From contig CBDCQO010000012.1 of NCBI GenBank assembly GCA_965220655.1, positions 368,268-432,267 of the forward strand: DNA of 64,000 nt, given 5' to 3'. The position numbers were made by a program, and so were the translations under genes. Each line of letters opens with the position of its first letter. The stretch's first letter is position 1. Source of the DNA: Dehalococcoidia bacterium (GTDB lineage: Bacteria > Chloroflexota > Dehalococcoidia > Lucifugimonadales > Australimonadaceae). Of this stretch, positions 1 through 61,110 are shown one piece after another. Under the pieces are notes generated by a model, which was given only the letters and a program-made list of their open reading frames with translations, was not told the origin of the DNA and ran no database searches.

Positions 1-1
1 C

Positions 2-1078
2 GACGAGCTGTACGCCGTGGCCGGCGCGCTGCGCGATCTCGACACCGGCGTCATCCAGGTCGGCGACCCGACGGACCTCGAACTGACCGAGGGCATCTGC
101 ACGAGGATGTCGGAGATCAGCGGGCGCCCGGTGACCTACCTCTCCATCACGCAGAGCGTGCTCCGGCCGGACAAGTGGCGGGAGCACCTCGCTCACCTCG
201 CGGACGTCGCTGCGCTTGGCACAGCCCGCATCTACCCGCAGATCAACCCGCGCCCGGGCCTGCGCTTCTTCCAGATGGACAGCGCGGAGTTCTTCAACTT
301 CATGCCCACCTGGAAACGCATCATGAACAGCAGCACGAAGGAGCGCGTCGCAGCGTTCGCCGACGCCTCGCTGCGCCCGCAACTCGCGATGGAGGTCGCA
401 GAGCGCAGCGACACCACCGCGCTCGGATTCTCGGGGCGGTGGGACCACGTCGTCATCGTCAAGCCTGCGCTGGAGAAGAACAAGGGCCTCGCAGGCATGA
501 CCGCCGCCGAACTCGGCGCGCAGCGCGGCATCAGCGCCATGGACGCCTTCCTCGACCTCGCTGTCGAGGAGGAGATGAAGACGTGGTGCGCCCGCAACCA
601 GCAGAACAACGACGACGCGGCGATGGCCGCCATCCTCAACGACGAGCACACCCTCATCGGCCTCTCAGACTCCGGCGCGCACGTCGTGCGGGAGGGCGGT
701 TACGGCTACGGCGTGCACTTCCTGAGCCACTGGGTGCGCGACAAGGGCATCATGCCGGTAGAGGAGGGCGTGCGACGTCTCACCTCGTTCCCCGCGGACA
801 TCTTCGGCACACCGGGGCGCGGCAGGCTCACCCCCGGCAGCAAGGCCGACGTGCTCGTGATGGACTACGAGAACCTCGGTCTCGACCCGTCGGAGGAAGC
901 CTACGACCTCCCCGGCGGCTCGATGCGGCTCAAGCAGGTGGCGCACGGCATCCCGTACACCATCGTCAACGGGCAGGTGCTGCTGGAGGACGGCGTGCAT
1001 ACCGGCGCGCTTCCCGGCGAGGTCGTCCGCAACTCCCGTTACGAGAAGGGGAAGAACGGGAACGGAGCGGCGGGCTAG
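2..1078 (+). CDS. D-aminoacylase / N-acyl-D-amino-acid deacylase family amidohydrolase, C-terminal part (5' end off window)
   Basis: Frame is open to the window edge (track ORF 17..1078 begins at an internal GTG). LIGLSDSGAHV motif and tail are typical of Amidohydro_3/D-aminoacylase. High GC3. Confidence 0.7.
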   Translation, partial: DELYAVAGALRDLDTGVIQVGDPTDLELTEGICTRMSEISGRPVTYLSITQSVLRPDKWREHLAHLADVAALGTARIYPQINPRPGLRFFQMDSAEFFNFMPTWKRIMNSSTKERVAAFADASLRPQLAMEVAERSDTTALGFSGRWDHVVIVKPALEKNKGLAGMTAAELGAQRGISAMDAFLDLAVEEEMKTWCARNQQNNDDAAMAAILNDEHTLIGLSDSGAHVVREGGYGYGVHFLSHWVRDKGIMPVEEGVRRLTSFPADIFGTPGRGRLTPGSKADVLVMDYENLGLDPSEEAYDLPGGSMRLKQVAHGIPYTIVNGQVLLEDGVHTGALPGEVVRNSRYEKGKNGNGAAG

Positions 1079-1081
1079 ATC

Positions 1082-1999
1082 TTGTCCTGGGTAGTCATCG
1101 CGCTTGCGGGTGCGGCGGTCTCCGGGATCGTCAGCATCTTCGACAAGACCGTCATCTACCGCTACGCCACCACGCCTCACACGCTGCCGCTGCTCATCGG
1201 CATCGCGCAGACGTTCGTCGGGGTCGTCGTGCTCGCTGCCGTCCGCGTGCCGCCGGAAGCGACGTGGGAACCTGTGCTCTGGGCGCTCGTCTCCGGTGTG
1301 GTCTTCGGTCTCAGCGCGCAGTTCCTGATACGCGTCCTGTACTGGAATGAAGTGTCCCGCACCATCCCGGTCTTCCAGAGCTATCCCATCTTCACCGCCG
1401 TCTACGCCTTCTTCTTCCTGGGCGAGGAGTTGGGCGTGGTCGACTGGTTCGCGGTGGCGGTCGTTGTCGCAGGGGCGGTGCTGATCTCGTTCCGCCCCGG
1501 CTCCGCCTCCATCCGCGGGATCCTGCTGGACAAGGCGTTCGTGCTGCTCATGATCGGCAGCGCTATCCACGGCAGCGCGCACGTATTCGGCAAGGTCGCG
1601 GTGGACGAACTGCCGGTCCTCTTCACACACGCGCTGCGCTCCCTCGGGCTCGGAGCCGTCTTCTTCGCCTTCAACCTCCGGAGCGGCTCGGTGGACGACG
1701 TTCGAACGTTTATCCGCACCCGCAGCCCTGCGCTGCGGTTCGTCGCCATGAACGAGCTGATCATCGCGACGGTAGGGCTGCTCCTGCTCCTCTGGGCGCT
1801 GGCGCTCGGCCCCGCCGCGCTCGTTACCGCGCTGTCCGGCGCGCGCGCCTTCTTCCTCGTCGTCTACAGCACGGCGCTTGCCCTCGTCTGGAAGGGCGCG
1901 CTCGGTGAGGTCACGACGCCGGGCGTCATCGCGATCAAGCTGGTCTCGACCTCGCTCATCGTGGCCGGCGTCGCGGCGATCGCGATGGGGAGTGCATAG
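1082..1999 (+). CDS. DMT superfamily (EamA-like) 10-TM transporter, tandem paralogue 1
   Basis: 305 aa, hydrophobic throughout, two-halves architecture. TTG start 3 nt after the upstream stop. N-terminus MSWV.. is shared with the next two genes. Confidence 0.7.
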   Translation: MSWVVIALAGAAVSGIVSIFDKTVIYRYATTPHTLPLLIGIAQTFVGVVVLAAVRVPPEATWEPVLWALVSGVVFGLSAQFLIRVLYWNEVSRTIPVFQSYPIFTAVYAFFFLGEELGVVDWFAVAVVVAGAVLISFRPGSASIRGILLDKAFVLLMIGSAIHGSAHVFGKVAVDELPVLFTHALRSLGLGAVFFAFNLRSGSVDDVRTFIRTRSPALRFVAMNELIIATVGLLLLLWALALGPAALVTALSGARAFFLVVYSTALALVWKGALGEVTTPGVIAIKLVSTSLIVAGVAAIAMGSA

Positions 2000-2002
2000 C
2001 GG

Positions 2003-2917
2003 ATGTCATGGGTAGCAGTGGTGCTGGCGGGCGTGGCGCTCGCCGCGCTCCTCAGCGTTCTCGACAAGACAGTCATACACCGCTACGCCCGCATGCCATA
2101 CCTGCAGCCGCTCGTGATCGGCATCACCATGATGCTCATCGGGCTTCCGCTGCTTGCGGTGACCGGCATCCCCTCCTCGGCGACGAATGAGGCCGTCCTC
2201 TCGGCCCTTGCATCCGGCGTCTGCTACGGCCTCGGCACGCACATCCTCGTGTACACGCTCTACAGGCAGGAAGTCTCCCGCGTCATACCCGTCTACCAGA
2301 CGTACCCCATCTTCACCGCGCTCATCGCATTCTTCTTCCTTGGCGAACGACTGGACGCCGTGGAGTGGCTGGCGATGCTCGCTGTCGTGGGAGGCGCTGT
2401 GCTGCTCTCCTTCCGCCGGGACGAGTCCGGTTGCGGCTTCCTGCTGGACAGGGCCTTCCTGCTGCTGATGCTCGGCAGTGCCATAGAAGGCAGTTCCTTC
2501 GTGTTCGGCAAGTCGGCGGTGAATGACCTCCCGGTGCTGTTCACGCACGCGCTGCGGCTGCTCTCGCTCGGCAGTGTGCTGCTTGCCCTGAACCTGCGCC
2601 GGCGTTCGCTGGAACAGGTGCTCTGGTTCGTGCGTACGCGCAGCCCTGCGCTCAAGTACGTCGCCATTAATCAGCTCGTCATCTCCAACGCGACCCAGTT
2701 CCTCTTTCTCTGGGCGCTCTCACTCGGTCCTACCATCCTCGTGACGGCCCTCTCCGGTCTCCGGGCATTCTTCGTGGTCGTCTATGCCATCGTCCTTGCC
2801 AAGGTGTGGCGCGGCGCGTTGGGCGAGGTGACGACGCCCGCCACGATCACGGTTAAGCTCGTATCTTCCATCCTGATCGTTGGCGGCGTCGCCGTTATAG
2901 CCGTAGGGAGTGCGTGA
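2003..2917 (+). CDS. DMT superfamily (EamA-like) transporter, tandem paralogue 2
   Basis: 304 aa, collinear with paralogues 1 and 3 (MSWV..LDKTVIHRYA.., EVSRVIPVYQTYPIFTALIAFFFLGERL). ATG 3 nt after the previous stop. Confidence 0.75.
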   Translation: MSWVAVVLAGVALAALLSVLDKTVIHRYARMPYLQPLVIGITMMLIGLPLLAVTGIPSSATNEAVLSALASGVCYGLGTHILVYTLYRQEVSRVIPVYQTYPIFTALIAFFFLGERLDAVEWLAMLAVVGGAVLLSFRRDESGCGFLLDRAFLLLMLGSAIEGSSFVFGKSAVNDLPVLFTHALRLLSLGSVLLALNLRRRSLEQVLWFVRTRSPALKYVAINQLVISNATQFLFLWALSLGPTILVTALSGLRAFFVVVYAIVLAKVWRGALGEVTTPATITVKLVSSILIVGGVAVIAVGSA

Positions 2918-2919
2918 CG

Positions 2920-3831
2920 ATGTCCTGGGTGATCATCGTGCTGGCGGGCGCGGCGCTTGCCGCCTGCATCGGCATCCTCGACAAGACCATCATCCACAAC
3001 TACGCGCGCACGCCGAGCACGGAGCCGCTTGCCATCGGCCTCACCATGCCGCTCGTCGGGACCACGCTGCTCCTCGTCTTCGGCATCCCGGAGTCGGCCA
3101 CGTTGGAAGCCGTGCTCCTGGCGCTCGCGTCCGGCGCGTTCTATGGCCTCGGAGCGCATATCCTCATCCACTCGCTGTATACGCGGGAGGTCTCCCGCGC
3201 CATACCCGTCTACCAGACGTACCCCATCTTCACGGCGCTCATCGCGTTCTTCTTCCTCGGCGAGCGGCTGGGCGCTGTCGAATGGCTCGCCGTGCTCGCG
3301 GTGGTGGGCGGCGCGGTGCTCATCTCGTCCGGCCCCGGCGCGTCCCGCGGCTTCCTGCCTGACAGGACGTTCATGCTGCTCATGCTCGGGAGTCTCATAG
3401 AGGGCAGCTCCTTCGTTCTTGGCAAGTCGGCGGTGAACGAACTGCCCGTGCTGTTCGCGCACGCGCTGCGGATGTTCGCCCTGAGCAGCGTCCTGCTCGT
3501 ATTCAACCTGCGGCGGCCTCCGCTGGACGACCTCATCTCGTTCTTCCGCACACGCAGCCCCGCGCTCGGGTACATGGCCGTCAACCAGTTCTTCGTCGCC
3601 AACGCCAGCCTCTTCCTGCTCCTGTGGGGACTCTCGCTCGGCCCCGCGACGCTCGTGACCGCACTCTCCAGCCTGCGGACGTTCTTCCTCGTCGTCTTCA
3701 CCATCGGCCTCTCGCTCGTGTGGCGCGGCGCGCTCGGCGAGGTCACGACGCGCGGCACCGTCACGGTCAAGCTCGTCTCCACCGCCCTCATCGTGGGCGG
3801 CGCCGTCGTCATCGCGCTCGGCAGCGGGTGA
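2920..3831 (+). CDS. DMT superfamily (EamA-like) transporter, tandem paralogue 3
   Basis: Start at ATG 2920 chosen by analogy with the MSWV N-termini of the other two. The track ORF begins at GTG 2914, overlapping the previous TGA. Confidence 0.75.
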   Translation: MSWVIIVLAGAALAACIGILDKTIIHNYARTPSTEPLAIGLTMPLVGTTLLLVFGIPESATLEAVLLALASGAFYGLGAHILIHSLYTREVSRAIPVYQTYPIFTALIAFFFLGERLGAVEWLAVLAVVGGAVLISSGPGASRGFLPDRTFMLLMLGSLIEGSSFVLGKSAVNELPVLFAHALRMFALSSVLLVFNLRRPPLDDLISFFRTRSPALGYMAVNQFFVANASLFLLLWGLSLGPATLVTALSSLRTFFLVVFTIGLSLVWRGALGEVTTRGTVTVKLVSTALIVGGAVVIALGSG

Positions 3832-13430: not shown

Positions 13431-14231
13431 CTAGACGCTCGCGATGAACTCGCGCACATGCGGAATCATAGTGTCCGCCGCCAGGAACGCTTCCATGTGC
13501 GTGTGGTCAGGCAACGAGAGGAACGACGCGTTGGGGGCGAGCGACGCGCACCGTTTGGCCGGTTCGTGGTTGCGCCTGTCCTTCGTGCCTGCGTAGACGA
13601 ACGTGGGGAGTGTCATCTTCACGATGTCCTCGTCCGGCACGCCCCAGTCGAGGTTCGCGAGTTGCTGCGCGGCGTAGGCGTCCTTGTCGTTCGCCAGCAG
13701 GCGTTCGCGGTCATAGTCGGGGAGCGGTCCGGCGTCCATCTCCATCGCGGCGACGTAGACGTCCATGCCGAGCCTCATGATCTTCGCGCGGGCCTCCCAC
13801 CTGGCGCGGTCGAACTCAGGGACGGGCAGGGGGATGACGGGGTAGGAGCCGAGCACGAGGGCGTGGAAGCGGTGCGGCGCGAGCATGCCGAGCGCCCAGC
13901 CGATGCTCGCACCCATCGAGTAACCCCAGTAGAACGTCTTCTCGATGCCGAGGTCGTCCAGCACGGTGGCAACGTCGGACACCTTCTGTGCGCGCCCATA
14001 GTCGGTGGGGTCGGTGAGCTTGTCGCTCTGGCCGAAGCCGCGGGAGTCGATGAGGATGAGCCGGAAATCGGCGGAGAGGGCAGACGTGTAGCCTGCGCTG
14101 TGCCAGTCCTTCGTGCTCATGCCCATGCCGTGCATGAGCACGAGCGGGGGCGCGTCAGCCGGCGCGTCGCCGTTCACCTCGTAGTGGATGCGGACGCCGT
14201 TGTTGTCGATGAACCGGTCTTCGAATGCCAT
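13431..14231 (-). CDS. Alpha/beta hydrolase, tandem array copy 2
   Basis: 266 aa. About 29 differences over about 266 aligned residues versus copy 1 (hand count). Confidence 0.85.
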   Translation of the reverse strand: MAFEDRFIDNNGVRIHYEVNGDAPADAPPLVLMHGMGMSTKDWHSAGYTSALSADFRLILIDSRGFGQSDKLTDPTDYGRAQKVSDVATVLDDLGIEKTFYWGYSMGASIGWALGMLAPHRFHALVLGSYPVIPLPVPEFDRARWEARAKIMRLGMDVYVAAMEMDAGPLPDYDRERLLANDKDAYAAQQLANLDWGVPDEDIVKMTLPTFVYAGTKDRRNHEPAKRCASLAPNASFLSLPDHTHMEAFLAADTMIPHVREFIASV

Positions 14232-14257
14232 GGTCTACGCTCCCTGTCCCCGGTCTC

Positions 14258-15079
14258 CTAGCGTGTGTCCTCCACCATAGCGACGAACTCCCGCACGTGC
14301 GGGATCATCAGGTCCGCCGCCAGGAACGCGGACATGTGCGTGTGCCCGTCCAGCGGCAGGAACCGGGCATTGGGCGCAAGCGAGGCTGAGCGCTTGGTAA
14401 GCGCGTGGTTGCGGGGCATGGGGTAGTCGTCGTCGGTGCCGGAGTAGACCAGGGCGGGCAGCGTCATGTTGACGATGTCCTCGTCTGGCGCGCCCCATTC
14501 CAGATTGGCTATCTGCTGGGCGGCGTAAGCGTCCTTGTCGTTCGACAAGAGCCTGGCCCGGCTCTCCTCCGGCAAGGGGCCCTGGTCCATCTCCATCGCG
14601 GCGACGTAGACGTCCATTCCGAGGCGCATGAGCTTCGCACGGGCCTCCCAGCGCACGCGGTCGATCTCCGGTACGTCCGGCGAGAGCACGGGGTACGCAC
14701 CGAGGACGAGGCCGTGGAAGCGTTCAGGCGCGAGCATCCCTACCGCCCAGCCGATGCTGGCGCCCATGGAGAAGCCCCAGTAGTAGGCCTTGTGCGCGCC
14801 GATGTCGTCCAGCACTGCGGTCACATCCGAGACCTTCTGAGCGCGACCGTAGTCCGCCGGGTCCTTCAGTTTGTCACTCTGTCCGAACCCACGCGAGTCG
14901 ATGAGCACGACCTTGAACTCGTTGCAGAGCTTCTCCGGGTAGCCGGCGTTCCGCCAGTCCTTCGTGCTCATGCCCATGCCGTGCACGAAGACGATGACGG
15001 GCGACTCTACGGGGCCGTCCTCTACCTCGTAGTGGATGCGGACGCCGTTGTTGTCGACGAAACAGTCCTGGTATGGCAT
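14258..15079 (-). CDS. Alpha/beta hydrolase, tandem array copy 3
   Basis: 273 aa. MPYQDCFVDNNGVRIHYEV.., GFSMGAS elbow. Confidence 0.85.
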   Translation of the reverse strand: MPYQDCFVDNNGVRIHYEVEDGPVESPVIVFVHGMGMSTKDWRNAGYPEKLCNEFKVVLIDSRGFGQSDKLKDPADYGRAQKVSDVTAVLDDIGAHKAYYWGFSMGASIGWAVGMLAPERFHGLVLGAYPVLSPDVPEIDRVRWEARAKLMRLGMDVYVAAMEMDQGPLPEESRARLLSNDKDAYAAQQIANLEWGAPDEDIVNMTLPALVYSGTDDDYPMPRNHALTKRSASLAPNARFLPLDGHTHMSAFLAADLMIPHVREFVAMVEDTR

Positions 15080-42280: not shown

Positions 42281-42356
<76 letters not shown>

Positions 42357-42401
42357 ACGACGCGCACTCCGCCGCCAAACGGCTGCGGTGCGGCAGCCTC
42401 T

Positions 42402-42410
42402 ACTATAGCA
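42402..42410 (-). promoter_or_regulatory. Extended -10 box TGCTATAGT upstream of tRNA-Ala
   Basis: Reverse complement of actatagca. About 45 nt upstream of the mature 5' end. Confidence 0.4.
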
Positions 42411-42468
42411 CAGGGTGGTGCCCGTCCCGGGGCACAGGGACGCTCCGGCCTTGCGACTGCCTGTCGTT

Positions 42469-42477
42469 TGCTACAAT
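42469..42477 (+). promoter_or_regulatory. Extended -10 box TGCTACAAT upstream of tRNA-Asn
   Basis: TG at 42469-42470 and TACAAT at 42472-42477. TTGCGA lies 15 nt upstream. About 29 nt before the mature 5' end. Confidence 0.45.
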
Positions 42478-42505
42478 AGACCTCGCGCCGGAATGGCGCG
42501 CGCGT

Positions 42506-42581
42506 TCCCGCGTAGCTCAGTTGGTAGAGCGGTCGGCTGTTAACCGATTGGTCGTAGGTTCGAGTCCTACCGCGGGAGCCA
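42506..42581 (+). tRNA. tRNA-Asn (anticodon GTT), CCA encoded
   Basis: Hand-folded. Acceptor TCCCGCG/CGCGGGA, anticodon stem GTCGG/CCGAT with loop CTGTTAA, T-arm GTAGG-TTCGAGT-CCTAC. Confidence 0.9.
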
Positions 42582-42727: not shown

Positions 42728-43387
42728 ATGGCGCTACGCATCAACGACACGGCCCCCGACTTCACCGCCGACACCAGCAGCGGCACCGTCAATTTCCACG
42801 ACTGGATCGGCGACGGTTGGGCCGTCCTCTTCTCCCACCCCAAGGACTTCACTCCCGTCTGCGCCACCGAACTCGGCTACGTCGCCAAGCTCAACGACGA
42901 GTTCGCCAAGCGCAACTGCAAGGTCATCGGGCTCAGCGTCGACAAGGTCGAGGACCACCAGCGCTGGGCCGACGACATCGAAGAGATCGGCGGCACCGCC
43001 CTCAACTTCCCCATCATCGCAGACGACCAACTGAACGTCGCCAAGCTGTACGACATGCTCCCCGCCGAGGAGGAGCCCGGAGAGGGCCGCACTGCGGCAA
43101 CGAACCAGACCGTGCGCACCGTCTTCCTCGTCGGCCCGGACAAGAAGATTAAGATGAACCTCACCTACCCCATGAGCACGGGGCGCAACTTCGACGAGTT
43201 GCTGCGTGTGCTGGACTCCTGCCAGCTCACCGCCGGCCACAAGGTGGCTACGCCTGCCAACTGGAACAAGGGCGAGGATGTCATCATCCTGCCTGCAGTC
43301 GACAACGAGGCTGCCAAGGAACTCTTCCCGGACGGCTGGGAGACGGTGAAGCCCTACCTTCGCAAGGTGAAGGACCCCAGCGCGTAA
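42728..43387 (+). CDS. 1-Cys peroxiredoxin (Prx6-like)
   Basis: Start MALRINDTAPDF after an AAGGAGAC SD. Peroxidatic motif HPKDFTPVCATE. No obvious resolving Cys. The track ORF is over-extended across tRNA-Asn. Confidence 0.85.
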   Translation: MALRINDTAPDFTADTSSGTVNFHDWIGDGWAVLFSHPKDFTPVCATELGYVAKLNDEFAKRNCKVIGLSVDKVEDHQRWADDIEEIGGTALNFPIIADDQLNVAKLYDMLPAEEEPGEGRTAATNQTVRTVFLVGPDKKIKMNLTYPMSTGRNFDELLRVLDSCQLTAGHKVATPANWNKGEDVIILPAVDNEAAKELFPDGWETVKPYLRKVKDPSA

Positions 43388-43410
43388 GCTACGTCGGTAT
43401 GCCCCATACG

Positions 43411-43441
43411 TAAAGCCCCCGCGCAACGTGCGCGGGGGCTT
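43411..43441. terminator. Bidirectional intrinsic terminator
   Basis: 13-bp stem AAAGCCCCCGCGC / GCGCGGGGGCTTT with A-run and T-run flanks. Sits between the convergent Prx gene and tRNA-Asp. Confidence 0.7.
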
Positions 43442-43458
43442 TACTTTCGCTGCCGCTG

Positions 43459-43537
43459 CTGGCGACCCGGACCGGATTTGAACCGGCGATCTCCGCCTTG
43501 ACAGGGCGGTGTGTTAAACCAGGCTACACCACCGGGC
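43459..43537 (-). tRNA. tRNA-Asp (anticodon GTC), CCA encoded
   Basis: Hand-folded. Acceptor GGCCCGG/CCGGGTC, anticodon stem CCGCC/GGCGG with loop CTGTCAA, T-arm GCCGG-TTCAAAT-CCGGT. Confidence 0.85.
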
Positions 43538-43548
43538 CGCGGTAGCTT

Positions 43549-43567
43549 GCCCCGGCTACACCGGGGC
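43549..43567 (-). promoter_or_regulatory. Candidate bacterial SECIS hairpin
   Basis: GCCCCGG-UGUAG-CCGGGGC. The stem starts 11 nt after the UGA at 43579-43581. Loop G and U fall at +23 and +24 counted from the U of UGA. Confidence 0.5.
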
Positions 43568-43569
43568 GG

Positions 43570-43803
43570 TCAGAACGCTCAGCCGATCCCATGATACCCC
43601 ACGATGACGAGTTCTCCCTCGACCATCACGGGAGTCACACGCTCACCGCCGGTCAGCTGTTCCAACTCCTCAACAAGTTCGGGATGCTCTTCGAGGTCGA
43701 TCTCCCGGTACTCCACTCCATCCTTCTTGAGGTCGTGGAGCAGCGCATCCGAATACGTGCAGTCGGGACGTGTATAGACGATGAGCTCAGCCTGGCTGAC
43801 CAT
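43570..43803 (-). CDS. Glutaredoxin-like small redox protein, predicted selenoprotein (in-frame UGA read as Sec; C-terminus ..GIG-U-A-F-stop)
   Basis: Thioredoxin-fold pattern ELIVYTRPDCTYSD..VTPVMV.. with CxxS instead of CxxC. The track ORF ends at TGA 43579-43581, then GCG TTC TGA follows in frame. Start ATG 43803 (GGAGG upstream); alternatives are 43827 and 43854. Confidence 0.55.
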
Positions 43804-43875
43804 TGCCTCCGCATCATACCAGCGCATGGCCTGATAGGCTAGGGAGCCATTCACTCACCCGTGCGGAGCCGGAAC

Positions 43876-44853
43876 ATGCCCATGATGCGAGCCGCCATCC
43901 TCAGAGGCCTGCGGGACATCGTCTGCGACGAAGTATCCATGCCGGAATCGGACGGTCAGAAAGCACTCGTGCGGATGCATATGGCCTCCATCTGCGGCAC
44001 GGACCTGCACTACGTCTACCATGGCTGGCCGCGCAACCGGTATCCGATGGAGCCTGGCGAACCGGGGCATGAGGGCGTGGGCACGATCGTGGAGCCAGGA
44101 GCCACGGGACTACCTGAAGGCGCTCTCGTCCTCACCGTTCCGAACATCTGGGAAGCGCGCAACTTCGCCGAGTACCAGGCAGTCTCGCCGCACTTCATCA
44201 TCGAGCTGCCGGAGGGGCGTCCCCTTGCCGAACTGATGATGGCCCAGCAGTTGGGCACCGTCATCTTCGCGGCCCGCAAACTGCCTGGGATGACGGGGAA
44301 AACCGCCGTCGTCATCGGGCAGGGGAGCGCAGGCCTCTTCCACGACTTCTATCTGCGCCGCCTCGGCGCCGAGCGCATCATCACCATCGAACCGAACGAC
44401 GACCGGCGTGCGGCAGGCGTCGCGCTCGGTGCGGACGACGCGCTCGACGTGACCGGCGATGCAGCGGTGGAAGCCGTACTGCAATTGACGGACGGGCAGG
44501 GGGCCGAGGTGGTCGTCGACGCCGTGGGCGGCCACGAGACCCTGGACCAGGCGGTGCGGATGGCGAAAGCAGAGGGGCACGTGCACGTCTTCGGATTGCC
44601 GACGGGGTTCGACCCCGTGCCGTTCGACCTGGGCACGTACTTCCTCAAACGGCTCGACATGCGCACCATATTCGGCGCTCAGGACGAGCCGGGGCTCGTG
44701 TCGTTCCGGCAGGCCCTCCGGCTCATAGCCGAAGGGGAGATCGATATGTCTCCCTACGTAACACACACCATGCCTCTGGAACGGGTAGGCGACGCCTTCG
44801 AACTGGCGCACGAACCCAGCGGCGGCGCGCTGAAGGTTTCCCTTACGATGTAG
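43876..44853 (+). CDS. Zn-dependent alcohol/threonine-dehydrogenase-like MDR oxidoreductase
   Basis: ICGTDLH and GHEGVG zinc motifs, GQGSAG dinucleotide motif. Start is ambiguous (GTG 43861; ATG 43876, 43882 or 43885). Confidence 0.8.
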   Translation: MPMMRAAILRGLRDIVCDEVSMPESDGQKALVRMHMASICGTDLHYVYHGWPRNRYPMEPGEPGHEGVGTIVEPGATGLPEGALVLTVPNIWEARNFAEYQAVSPHFIIELPEGRPLAELMMAQQLGTVIFAARKLPGMTGKTAVVIGQGSAGLFHDFYLRRLGAERIITIEPNDDRRAAGVALGADDALDVTGDAAVEAVLQLTDGQGAEVVVDAVGGHETLDQAVRMAKAEGHVHVFGLPTGFDPVPFDLGTYFLKRLDMRTIFGAQDEPGLVSFRQALRLIAEGEIDMSPYVTHTMPLERVGDAFELAHEPSGGALKVSLTM

Positions 44854-59252: not shown

Positions 59253-59261
59253 TGCTAGAAT
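59253..59261 (+). promoter_or_regulatory. Extended -10 box TGCTAGAAT overlapping the first ATG of the lepA ORF
   Basis: TG at 59253-59254 and TAGAAT at 59256-59261. In-frame GTG 59269 lies 7 nt downstream. Confidence 0.4.
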
Positions 59262-61110
59262 GAGGGGCGTGGACCCCGCTCTCATCCGCAACTTCTGCAT
59301 CATCGCCCATATCGATCACGGCAAGTCGACACTCGCCGACCGCATCCTGGAGATCACGGGCGCGGTCTCCGCGCGCGAGATGCATGACCAGCTGCTCGAC
59401 TCGATGGACCTCGAGCGCGAGCGCGGCATCACCATCAAGGCGCAGGCCGTCCGCATGGGGCTCGCCTACCAGGGCCGCGACTACGAGCTGAACCTGATCG
59501 ACACGCCCGGGCACGTCGACTTCTCGTACGAGGTCTCACGCTCGCTCGCGGCGTGCGAGGGCGCGCTGTTGATCGTCGACGCAGCGCAGGGCATCCAGGC
59601 GCAGACGCTTGCCAACGTCTACCTCGCGCTGGAGCACGATCTCACCATCGTCCCCGTCGTGAACAAGATCGACCTGCCTTCCGCGGAGCCCGACCGGGTC
59701 ATCGAGGAGCTGGTGACGGCGTTCGGCTTCGACGCGGACGAAGTGTTGCGAGTCTCCGCGAAGGACGGCACGGGCGTGCGCGCGCTGCTGGAGGCGGTCG
59801 TGGAACGGGTGCCGCCGCCCGAGGCGCACGAGGAGAAGCCGCTGCGTGCGCTGGTGTTCGACTCGAAGTACGACTCGTACAAGGGTGTGATGGCGTACGT
59901 TCGCGTCGTGGACGGCGCGGTGAAGGGCACGGACCGCGTTCGGATGATGGCGACGGGCACGGAGGCTGACCTGCTGGAAGTCGGAGCGTTCCGCCCGGCG
60001 ATGGCGAAGGCGGCGAACCTGTCGGCGGGCGAGGTGGGCTATCTGGCGACGGGGCTGAAGAGCGTGGGCGACTGCCGCGTCGGCGACACCATCACGCATG
60101 CCCGCGCGGGCGCAGTCGAACCGCTGCCCGGCTACGGCGAGCAGAAGCCGATGGTGTTCGCGGGCCTGTATCCGACCGACGGCAACGAGTTCCACAACCT
60201 GCGCGAGTCGCTGGAGCGTCTACAGATGAACGACGCCGCGCTCGTGTACGAACCGGAGAGTTCGCCCGCACTCGGGCCCGGCTTCCGGTGCGGATTCCTG
60301 GGCCTGCTGCACATGGAGATCGTGCAGGAGCGGCTGGAGCGCGAATACGGCATGGACCTCGTCGTCACCGCGCCGAGCGTCGTCTACCGCGTGACGATGA
60401 ACGACGACTCGATACGGGAGGTGTCCCGTCCCACGGATCTGCCGACAGGCGGCGAGTCGCAGCAGGTGGAGGAGCCGTGGCTGGACCTGTCCATCCTCAC
60501 GCCGTCGCGTTTCGTGGGGCCGATGATGGAGCTGATCAACTCGCGCCGAGGCGAGTTCAAGCGCACGGAGTACCTGGACTCCGCCACCGGCGGCGCAGGA
60601 GGCGCGGACGCCTCGCCGTCGTCCGATCCGCGCGTGCTGCTCGAAGCGTCGGCGCCGATGGCCGAGGTGCTGGTGGACTTCTACGACCAGGTGAAGACGC
60701 GCAGCCGCGGCTATGCATCGCTGGACTACTCGTTCAACGGCTACCGGGCCGCGCCGCTCGTTCGGCTGGACATCCTCGTGAACCAGTCGCCGGTCGACGC
60801 GCTGTCGCTCATCACGCACCGCGACCGCGCCTACCACCAGGGGCGGATGCTGGTCGAGCGTCTGCGGAAGCTCATCCCGCGGCAGCTGTTCGACGTGCCG
60901 ATCCAGGCGGCCATCGGGAGCAAGGTCATCGCCAGGGAGACGGTCACGGCGATGCGGAAGAACGTGCTGGCGAAGTGCTACGGCGGGGACGTGACGCGCA
61001 AGCGGAAGCTGCTGGAGAAGCAGGCCGAGGGCAAGAAGCGCATGAAGCGCATCGGGCGGGTCGAAGTGCCGCAGGAGGCGTTCCTCGCGGTCATCAAGAT
61101 GGACCGCTAG
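59260..61110 (+). CDS. lepA: Translation elongation factor 4 (LepA)
   Basis: [21 protein letters not shown]1 motif, DTPGH, NKID, and the LepA-specific C-terminal domain. The start may be GTG 59269 rather than ATG 59260. Confidence 0.9.

Follow-up and report, generated by a model that had tools for sequence, protein, structure and literature searches.

Does the first in-frame TGA of a short glutaredoxin-like gene end the protein, or is the codon decoded as selenocysteine (Sec)? The question is raised by a 64,000-nucleotide stretch of DNA (hereafter the window) from a SAR202-type Dehalococcoidia bacterium of marine or sponge origin (GenBank assembly GCA_965220655.1, contig CBDCQO010000012.1, positions 368,268 to 432,267). 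On its minus strand the letters read GGG ATC GGC TGA (43581-43579) GCG TTC TGA (43572-43570) CC, and a G+C-rich hairpin follows. Comparison with homologous loci gives us high confidence that 43803-43570 (-) encodes a 77-residue selenoprotein with a glutaredoxin fold, belonging to UXX-star family 2, in which UGA 43581-43579 is predicted to be decoded as Sec by means of a selenocysteine insertion sequence (SECIS). An earlier reading of the same stretch from its letters (the sequence-only reading) had ended the open reading frame (ORF) at ..GIG on TGA 43579-43581, had proposed read-through to GIG-U-A-F and had noted an active site of C-T-Y-S. The first two are exact at those coordinates, and codons 43761-43750 give the third. 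Its interpretation of the gene as a selenoprotein is supported by the sequence comparisons described below, in a family that is already curated and published.

Homologous genes continue in frame past the TGA

A protein search returned 127 relatives, and 118 among the 120 listed end in ..G[IV]G. The other two are P0117, which ends in ..GVGWSF, a gene caller having rendered the TGA as Trp, and P0028, which differs from ~12 residues before its end, apparently through a frameshift. Standard gene callers have cut 119 of the 120 listed homologues at the TGA, or mistranslated them across it, and the remaining one is frameshifted.

The DNA beyond the TGA was compared at 80 loci from GTDB species genomes (Dehalococcoidia, SAR202 or Chloroflexota metagenome-assembled genomes (MAGs); 52-95% protein identity). 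TGA occupies the codon after G-[IVA]-G at all 80. The first codon after it specifies Ala at 50 loci, with all four Ala codons in use, and Ser at 22 (AGC, AGT or TCG); Asn, Glu, Thr and Gly make up the rest. The second specifies Phe at 79 loci (TTC at 72, TTT at 7) and Tyr at one. A stop follows U-x-x immediately at 75 loci, while the remaining five carry one extra Glu or Asp codon and read A-F-E, A-F-D or S-F-E before terminating. This real stop is TAG at 40 loci, TGA at 28 and TAA at 12. That the codons past the TGA vary synonymously while the amino-acid pattern holds indicates that they are translated. Taken together, an invariant TGA, an in-frame small residue followed by Phe, and a free choice of terminator argue for translation through the TGA; a genuine stop predicts otherwise.

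Distant relatives carry Cys where Sec is predicted. A profile search of 1.84 billion representatives recovered P0315 (..GVGCAF), P0335 (..GIGCAF), P0316 (..GFGCSF) and P0313 (..GIGCNFS), in which the chain ends three or a few more residues later. The sequence-only reading had proposed such an alignment as a check on itself, and the outcome favours it: all 80 loci continue past GIG, and the Cys homologues end in ..GCAF or ..GCSF at the same position. No convincing candidate for another gene with an in-frame TGA and coding-like base composition on both sides emerged from a scan of the window.

The simplest rival explanation takes TGA 43581-43579 as an ordinary stop. The protein would then end at ..GIG, and the hairpin, ahead of a tRNA-Asp gene, would act at the RNA 3' end, in stability or in processing, or would be a terminator without a U-tract. 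We find this barely credible. Gene callers do finish the protein at GIG, but a stop that is TGA at 80 of 80 loci, followed by a second stop that varies freely among three codons, is not what termination at GIG would leave behind. Nor does it accommodate two following codons that hold frame and residue type (small, then Phe or Tyr) through synonymous change, or distant homologues with Cys at that very position. The hidden Markov model (HMM) NF041211 likewise includes the three extra residues, and the score of the window protein rises by ~8 bits when they are supplied.

The hairpin past the UGA has a fixed spacing and a conserved structure

The hairpin consists of GCCCCGG (43567-43561), the loop UGUAG (43560-43556) and CCGGGGC (43555-43549), which form a 7-bp stem. 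With the U of the first UGA counted as +1, the stem starts at +15, 11 nt after the UGA, and the loop places G at +23 and U at +24. RNAfold draws the same element as 8 bp closed by a GUA triloop; the centroid, which contains this hairpin only, has an energy of -17.1 kcal/mol. The sequence-only reading had given this stem, spacing and loop, had likened them to the SECIS of Escherichia coli fdhF with its U17 missing, and had seen no U-tract. The letters confirm the geometry, letters and RNAfold agree on a perfect stem free of any bulge, and no U-tract or terminator-like site was found.

The model of bacterial SECIS (bSECIS) elements by Zhang & Gladyshev, as quoted in PMC13188914, calls for 3-9 nt in the apical loop, 4-16 bp in the upper stem and a minimum free energy of at most -7.5 kcal/mol. 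It also calls for a G as the first or second loop nucleotide, as a rule with G or U after it, and a distance of 16-37 nt from UGA to loop (PMC13188914). The window hairpin conforms on all four counts, with a UGA-loop distance of 18-19 nt and a stem of 7 bp (loop of 5 nt) or 8 bp (loop of 3 nt).

In these genomes a similar hairpin with a loop G occurs by chance at ~5% of random TGAs. A hairpin of at least 6 bp that starts between +12 and +21 and has a G in its loop is present at 74 of the 80 species loci, versus 5.3% of 6,400 random TGAs and 5.0% of 1,086 long-ORF ends scored with the same hairpin finder. The two control sets were added because the loop-anchored alignment described below was fitted to hairpins found sequence by sequence.

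Nearly all of the 70 distinct downstream sequences contain a hairpin of 7-9 bp, which starts mostly at +15 (range +12 to +21). The letters of the stem are diverse and include GCCCCGG, UGGUGGGC, GACGGGCG, GCAGGCC, GGGGCA, GAGAGCC and CUAAACU, among others. Apical loops are mostly G-U-x or G-G-x, the commonest being GUC (21 of 70), GUU (12) and GGA (8). The loop centre falls between +21.5 and +27, with a mode of +24, at 86 loci (the 80 species plus six copies of the window protein).

When distinct hairpins are aligned without gaps and anchored on the loop, 56 of 56 have the loop G. Paired cells in this alignment amount to 84% versus 54% in shuffles, and 153 cells are altered on both sides versus 54 +/- 6. 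The covariation score is 0.793, compared to 0.212 +/- 0.022 in shuffles and at most 0.30 in slid controls. From 49 sequences outside the window's clade, aligned by MAFFT with no anchor, RNAalifold recovered the 7-bp triloop hairpin again, and all seven of its pairs show compensatory changes. From the full set of 62 sequences, also aligned by MAFFT, it predicted no structure. That null arises because MAFFT set the window's clade in a different register, and it is answered by the 49-sequence subset and the anchored alignment. The covariation check suggested by the sequence-only reading has therefore come out positive: the structure is conserved and the sequence is not.

Two sets of loci show what the hairpin is tied to. 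Where an extra codon precedes the real stop (five loci), the hairpin overlaps that stop and its start stays at +15 to +17, so it is the Sec UGA that sets the spacing. The 13 loci that have no downstream tRNA-Asp all retain it. Together these loci link the hairpin to the UGA rather than to the end of the gene or to the tRNA. An ordinary stop with a 3'-end element behind it sits poorly with the same facts, namely a hairpin-TGA distance that stays constant when the real stop shifts by one codon, an invariant loop G and a hairpin at every locus devoid of the tRNA. On these alignments, the hairpin structure is judged to be under strong purifying selection. It is the comparative data that carry the case for a hairpin beyond chance, rather than the window hairpin alone, which is weak evidence.

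In the SECIS of E. coli fdhF, the SelB-binding mini-helix lies 11 nt 3' of the UGA, and G23 and U24 of the loop are the key contacts. The window element shares the 11-nt distance from UGA to helix base, with G at +23 and U at +24 of the apical loop. It differs in having no lower helix across the UGA, and in lying in the 3' untranslated region (UTR) instead of the coding sequence (CDS). As judged from the letters, it resembles the fdhF mini-helix in spacing and loop but is not of the fdhF-specific type. The predicted SECIS consensus of the family in Dehalococcoidia is a stem of 7-9 bp with a G-U/G triloop whose centre lies at about +24, in the 3' UTR.

Genes for selenocysteine synthesis occur in the same population and in related genomes

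No tRNA-Sec gene was found in the 64-kb window, and tblastn with E. coli probes, which provide leads only, found no selA, selB or selD there. The sequence-only reading had likewise seen no selA, selB, selC or selD in the window, and this stands. The SelB probe did match 59308-59871 at 30% identity over 195 residues, within the N-terminal GTPase domain only. The GTPase encoded at 59260-61110 was rejected as SelB, its sequence being LepA/EF4-like as judged by eye.

We then looked beyond the window's edges by way of its EamA-family protein (1082-1999), which led to four contigs that match the window at 97-98% identity. Three have selA at the position ~8 kb past the window's left edge; the fourth stops short of that point. 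One contig, ena:ERZ25068633:ctg160006_11x_l, carries both selA and an identical Uxx-star protein ~52 kb apart. The selA of this population (PF03841) is intact over the 271 N-terminal residues visible and is 85% identical to a full-length SelA. Of the genes that mark the Sec-decoding trait, selA is present on near-identical contigs. In these records selA is preceded by two MPAB_Lcp_cat genes, plsY, hydantoinase A and B genes and an amidohydrolase gene whose 3' part is window 17-1078. It also stands beside a tRNA gene in L089 (1-814) and L090 (1-812). This tRNA was considered as tRNA-Sec and rejected, since ARAGORN and Rfam both call it tRNA-Leu(UAA). In the window, positions 1082-3831 (+) hold three tandem paralogous EamA-family transporter genes of ~305 aa each, with gaps or overlaps of 4 nt.

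More distant genomes also place Sec genes near the Uxx-star gene. At locus L020, selA (508 bits versus TIGR00474) lies ~1 kb downstream of the orthologue. At L042 (MAG OZ251500.1; orthologue 80% identical), selD (13764-14813; 349 bits versus TIGR00476) lies ~3.5 kb downstream and has an in-frame TGA of its own, in the N-terminal motif C-A-G-U-A-G-K, at which the ORF lister stops. The SelA probe also matched at L037, as a lead only. L004 has SelA and the Uxx-star gene on the same record, 51 kb apart, and the flank of its selA locus aligns to window 1-1308. Matching of records suggests that selA may also be linked in four more genomes (L021, L022, L029 and the 2,539,098-bp contig of P0007). The search for Sec machinery that the sequence-only reading had called for has succeeded in part: selA was found on near-identical contigs and selD in a related MAG, and selB and tRNA-Sec were not located.

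Several observations weigh against decoding of the codon as Sec. Searches of the window and of ~1.8 Mb of related loci revealed neither selB nor tRNA-Sec, and for this genome the evidence of selA comes from contigs 96-98% identical to the window. The 52-nt hairpin region folds like its dinucleotide shuffles (z = -0.26) in DNA of 66% G+C. Rfam, run on 43300-43900 with E up to 10, returned no SECIS match, only tRNA-Asp and sub-threshold matches; we regard this null as uninformative, no SECIS model having matched even at so lax a threshold. The hairpin also lies 10 nt from a tRNA gene, so a second or different role is possible for it. The unexceptional fold, the Rfam result and the tRNA, which recurs beside the gene at 67 of 80 loci, count in favour of an ordinary stop as well. 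In addition, the perfect all-G/C stem has no counterpart of the bulged U17 of the fdhF SECIS. At the level of the protein, Sec in members of UXX-star family 2 is a prediction, a pairing of Sec75 with Cys15 is something that we purely infer, and a recent review instead suggests metal binding or other, unknown substrates (PMC13188914).

In a second rival explanation the UGA is recoded to something other than Sec: by near-cognate read-through with Cys or Trp, by insertion of Cys through the Sec pathway, or as a relic whose machinery is partly lost. We consider this improbable. Besides the failure to locate selB and tRNA-Sec, it can draw on P0117, where one gene caller wrote the codon as W, and on the ability of the Sec machinery to insert Cys at Sec codons under selenium limitation. 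However, TGA is a normal stop here, terminating the window gene itself and 28 of the 80 orthologues, so the organism does not use genetic code 4 or 25. This rival would also have to explain why selA, whose only known role is in making Sec-tRNA(Sec), is intact over its visible N-terminal residues in the same population, why the selD of a related MAG is itself Sec-encoded, and why a SECIS-like structure is under strong purifying selection. Decoding as Sec remains the reading that we prefer.

The window gene belongs to UXX-star family 2

The sequence-only reading had pointed to a curated 'Uxx-star' family. It exists in NCBIfam as NF041212 and NF041211, and the window protein passes the cutoffs of both. 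Scored with Cys in place of U, the protein reaches 120.5 bits on NF041211, 'UXX-star (seleno)protein family 2' (an equivalog with a cutoff of 100 bits), and 93.9 bits on the parent subfamily NF041212 (cutoff 66). The form ending at GIG scores 112.3 bits against NF041211, the HMM of which covers the three residues past the TGA, so that the C-A-F tail accounts for the difference. The G-x-G-U motif and the Sec or Cys three residues before the stop, both features of NF041211, are present in the window gene. PF00462 (Glutaredoxin; 42 bits, cutoff 22.9) is the only domain that Pfam sees and places the protein in the glutaredoxin fold. The gene belongs to NF041211 by every testable criterion, and nothing of substance sets it apart.

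Proteins 77-78% identical to that of the window (P0057 and P0069) bear the NCBI name 'UXX-star (seleno)protein family 2 [Chloroflexi/Chloroflexota bacterium]', and the exact window sequence is nameless in its ENA and Logan entries. The finding is already known, since NCBI curates the family as NF041211 and a 2026 review lists it (PMC13188914). The review gives UXX-star family 2 the motif GxGU and one Sec, with credit to Haft & Tolstoy 2025, mSystems. Dehalococcoidia MAGs are among the most selenoprotein-rich bacteria, with 46-49 selenoproteins each (BSepDB; PMC13326102). Neither PMC13188914 nor PMC13326102 mentions the tRNA-Asp adjacency or the SECIS statistics reported here, and a full-text literature search pairing selenoprotein with SAR202 gave no match. 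The modest new material is a quantified SECIS consensus for UXX-star family 2 in Dehalococcoidia, together with the frequent tRNA-Asp downstream.

UXX-star families 1 and 3 and the HUGP/GUXX-star fusion (NF041114, NF047338 and NF045501) share the glutaredoxin-like fold and a Sec three residues from the end. These models detect the window protein at 44-70 bits, under the cutoff of each. Family 1 has a second Sec in an N-terminal UxxT site (PMC13188914), where the window protein has the Cys of C-T-Y-S. The nearest solved structures are glutaredoxins and NrdH (2khp, 2mzc, 3ic4 and 1h75; E ~1e-6 to 1e-3). With these classical dithiol proteins the window protein shares the thioredoxin/glutaredoxin fold, their CPYC aligning with its C-T-Y-S, and it has a T-P (cis-Pro) motif. 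The similarity is weak, however (E ~3e-6), and the second active-site Cys is replaced by Ser, so that the CxxC (CPYC) signature of a dithiol glutaredoxin is not found. The chain also ends shortly past the last beta strand in a Sec-containing tail, in contrast to the C-terminal helix that glutaredoxins and NrdH have there.

Proposed decoding and chemistry

In the mechanism that we propose, the ribosome would arrive at UGA 43581-43579, and the hairpin 11 nt downstream would serve as a bacterial SECIS. Its G-U apical loop would be bound by SelB in complex with GTP and Sec-tRNA(Sec) for delivery of selenocysteine, after which the Ala and Phe codons would be read and translation would end at UGA 43572-43570. 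With only two codons after Sec, the SECIS would lie wholly in the 3' UTR.

In the protein, Cys15 of C-T-Y-S and Sec75 on the flexible C-terminus could form a selenenylsulfide redox pair in place of the CxxC dithiol. This is the chemistry that we prefer, at about even odds. Mammalian thioredoxin reductase has a C-terminal Gly-Cys-Sec-Gly redox centre, in which Sec on a flexible tail forms a selenenylsulfide. The likeness would be one of function only, in a Sec near the C-terminus on a flexible tail and in the proposed selenenylsulfide electron shuttle. Fold and size are unrelated, and the partner Cys of thioredoxin reductase is adjacent to Sec, whereas Cys15 of the window protein is 60 residues away. 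Indirect support is suggested by UXX-star family 1, the second Sec of which occupies the active-site position (PMC13188914). The main alternative chemistry is that Cys and Sec may together bind a metal or metalloid.

Gene model and annotation

The start codon is probably ATG 43803-43801. A Met at this position is common to the homologues in the protein alignment, and residues upstream of it vary. A GGAGG stands only 2 nt upstream of this ATG. The spacing is unusually short, and an in-frame start further upstream, at 43827 (ATG) or 43854 (GTG), may serve instead. Cys15, Tyr17 and Ser18 are invariant in homologue alignment A1, and C-x-Y-S is present at 76 of the 80 species loci. For annotation, the CDS needs to be extended by three codons and residue 75 labelled as Sec (Table 1).

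Table 1. Features of the predicted selenoprotein gene and its downstream region, in window coordinates.
Feature	Position	Strand	Remarks
UXX-star family 2 glutaredoxin-like selenoprotein CDS (predicted)	43570..43803	-	77 codons + stop; MVSQAEL...VGYHGIG-U-A-F
Active-site motif C15-T-Y-S	43750..43761	-	occupies the CPYC position of glutaredoxins; single thiol
In-frame UGA, predicted Sec75	43579..43581	-	third from the C-terminus; motif G-I-G-U
True stop UGA	43570..43572	-	after Ala76 and Phe77; direct reading
Candidate bacterial SECIS hairpin	43549..43567	-	3' of the true stop; conforms to the bSECIS model
tRNA-Asp(GTC)	43460..43538	-	ARAGORN; Rfam tRNA 63.1 bits; 10 nt past the hairpin

The adjoining tRNA-Asp gene and the neighbourhood

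The Uxx-star gene is followed directly by a tRNA-Asp(GTC) gene of the same orientation at 67 of the 80 Dehalococcoidia species loci. At 47 of those 67 no more than 60 nt separate the Sec UGA from the tRNA start, 43 nt being the commonest distance. The window's clade leaves space for the hairpin only before tRNA-Asp, which suggests co-transcription. No U-tract terminator or sigma-70-like promoter was found in 43300-44000. The selenoprotein gene and tRNA-Asp of the window are probably co-transcribed, the tRNA being no part of the selenoprotein, and the arrangement suggests a shared transcript in which RNase P cleaves immediately past the SECIS.

In a more divergent clade the two genes are separated by a spacer of 100-250 nt, with a conserved sigma-70-like promoter, TTGACA-N17-TAnAAT, just past the SECIS (loci L046-L050, L054, L055, L057-L059, L063, L066, L069, L071, L073 and L080). 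One example, TTGACACGATAGCTGGCCAGGAAATACAAT, reads TTGACA-N17-TACAAT. From these letters, tRNA-Asp appears to have a promoter of its own in the divergent clade and apparently none in the window's clade.

In the window's clade, the mRNA and tRNA-Asp might form one transcript in which the hairpin recruits SelB and, after RNase P cleavage 10 nt downstream, shields the 3' end of the mRNA. Adjacency of the UXX-star gene and tRNA-Asp would then reflect functional coupling instead of inherited gene order. This is a speculative scheme that we think doubtful.

A 1-Cys peroxiredoxin gene (~42728-43387 (+)) converges on the Uxx-star/tRNA-Asp pair; its product has the C-terminal domain PF10417 and falls under every NCBIfam cutoff. 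A gene for a zinc-type alcohol dehydrogenase (43861-44853 (+)) diverges from the Uxx-star gene. Both neighbours are confined to the close clade, the peroxiredoxin at 22 of the 80 loci and the alcohol dehydrogenase at 24. We considered the peroxiredoxin as a conserved partner and found this unsupported, all 22 species being close relatives in which shared synteny accounts for it. A Cys15-Sec75 selenenylsulfide could possibly serve the neighbouring 1-Cys peroxiredoxin.

Between tRNA-Asp and the convergent peroxiredoxin gene, 43410-43444 holds a G+C-rich inverted repeat (AAAGCCCCCGCGC...GCGCGGGGGCUUU), probably a bidirectional terminator. It gives sub-threshold Rfam matches on both strands (sodF small RNA, 31.5 bits against a gathering score of 46). 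Just past the peroxiredoxin gene, 42281-42581 carries tRNA-Ala(CGC) (-) and tRNA-Asn(GTT) (+), which together with tRNA-Asp make up a small tRNA cluster that is kept in the close clade (L001-L016).

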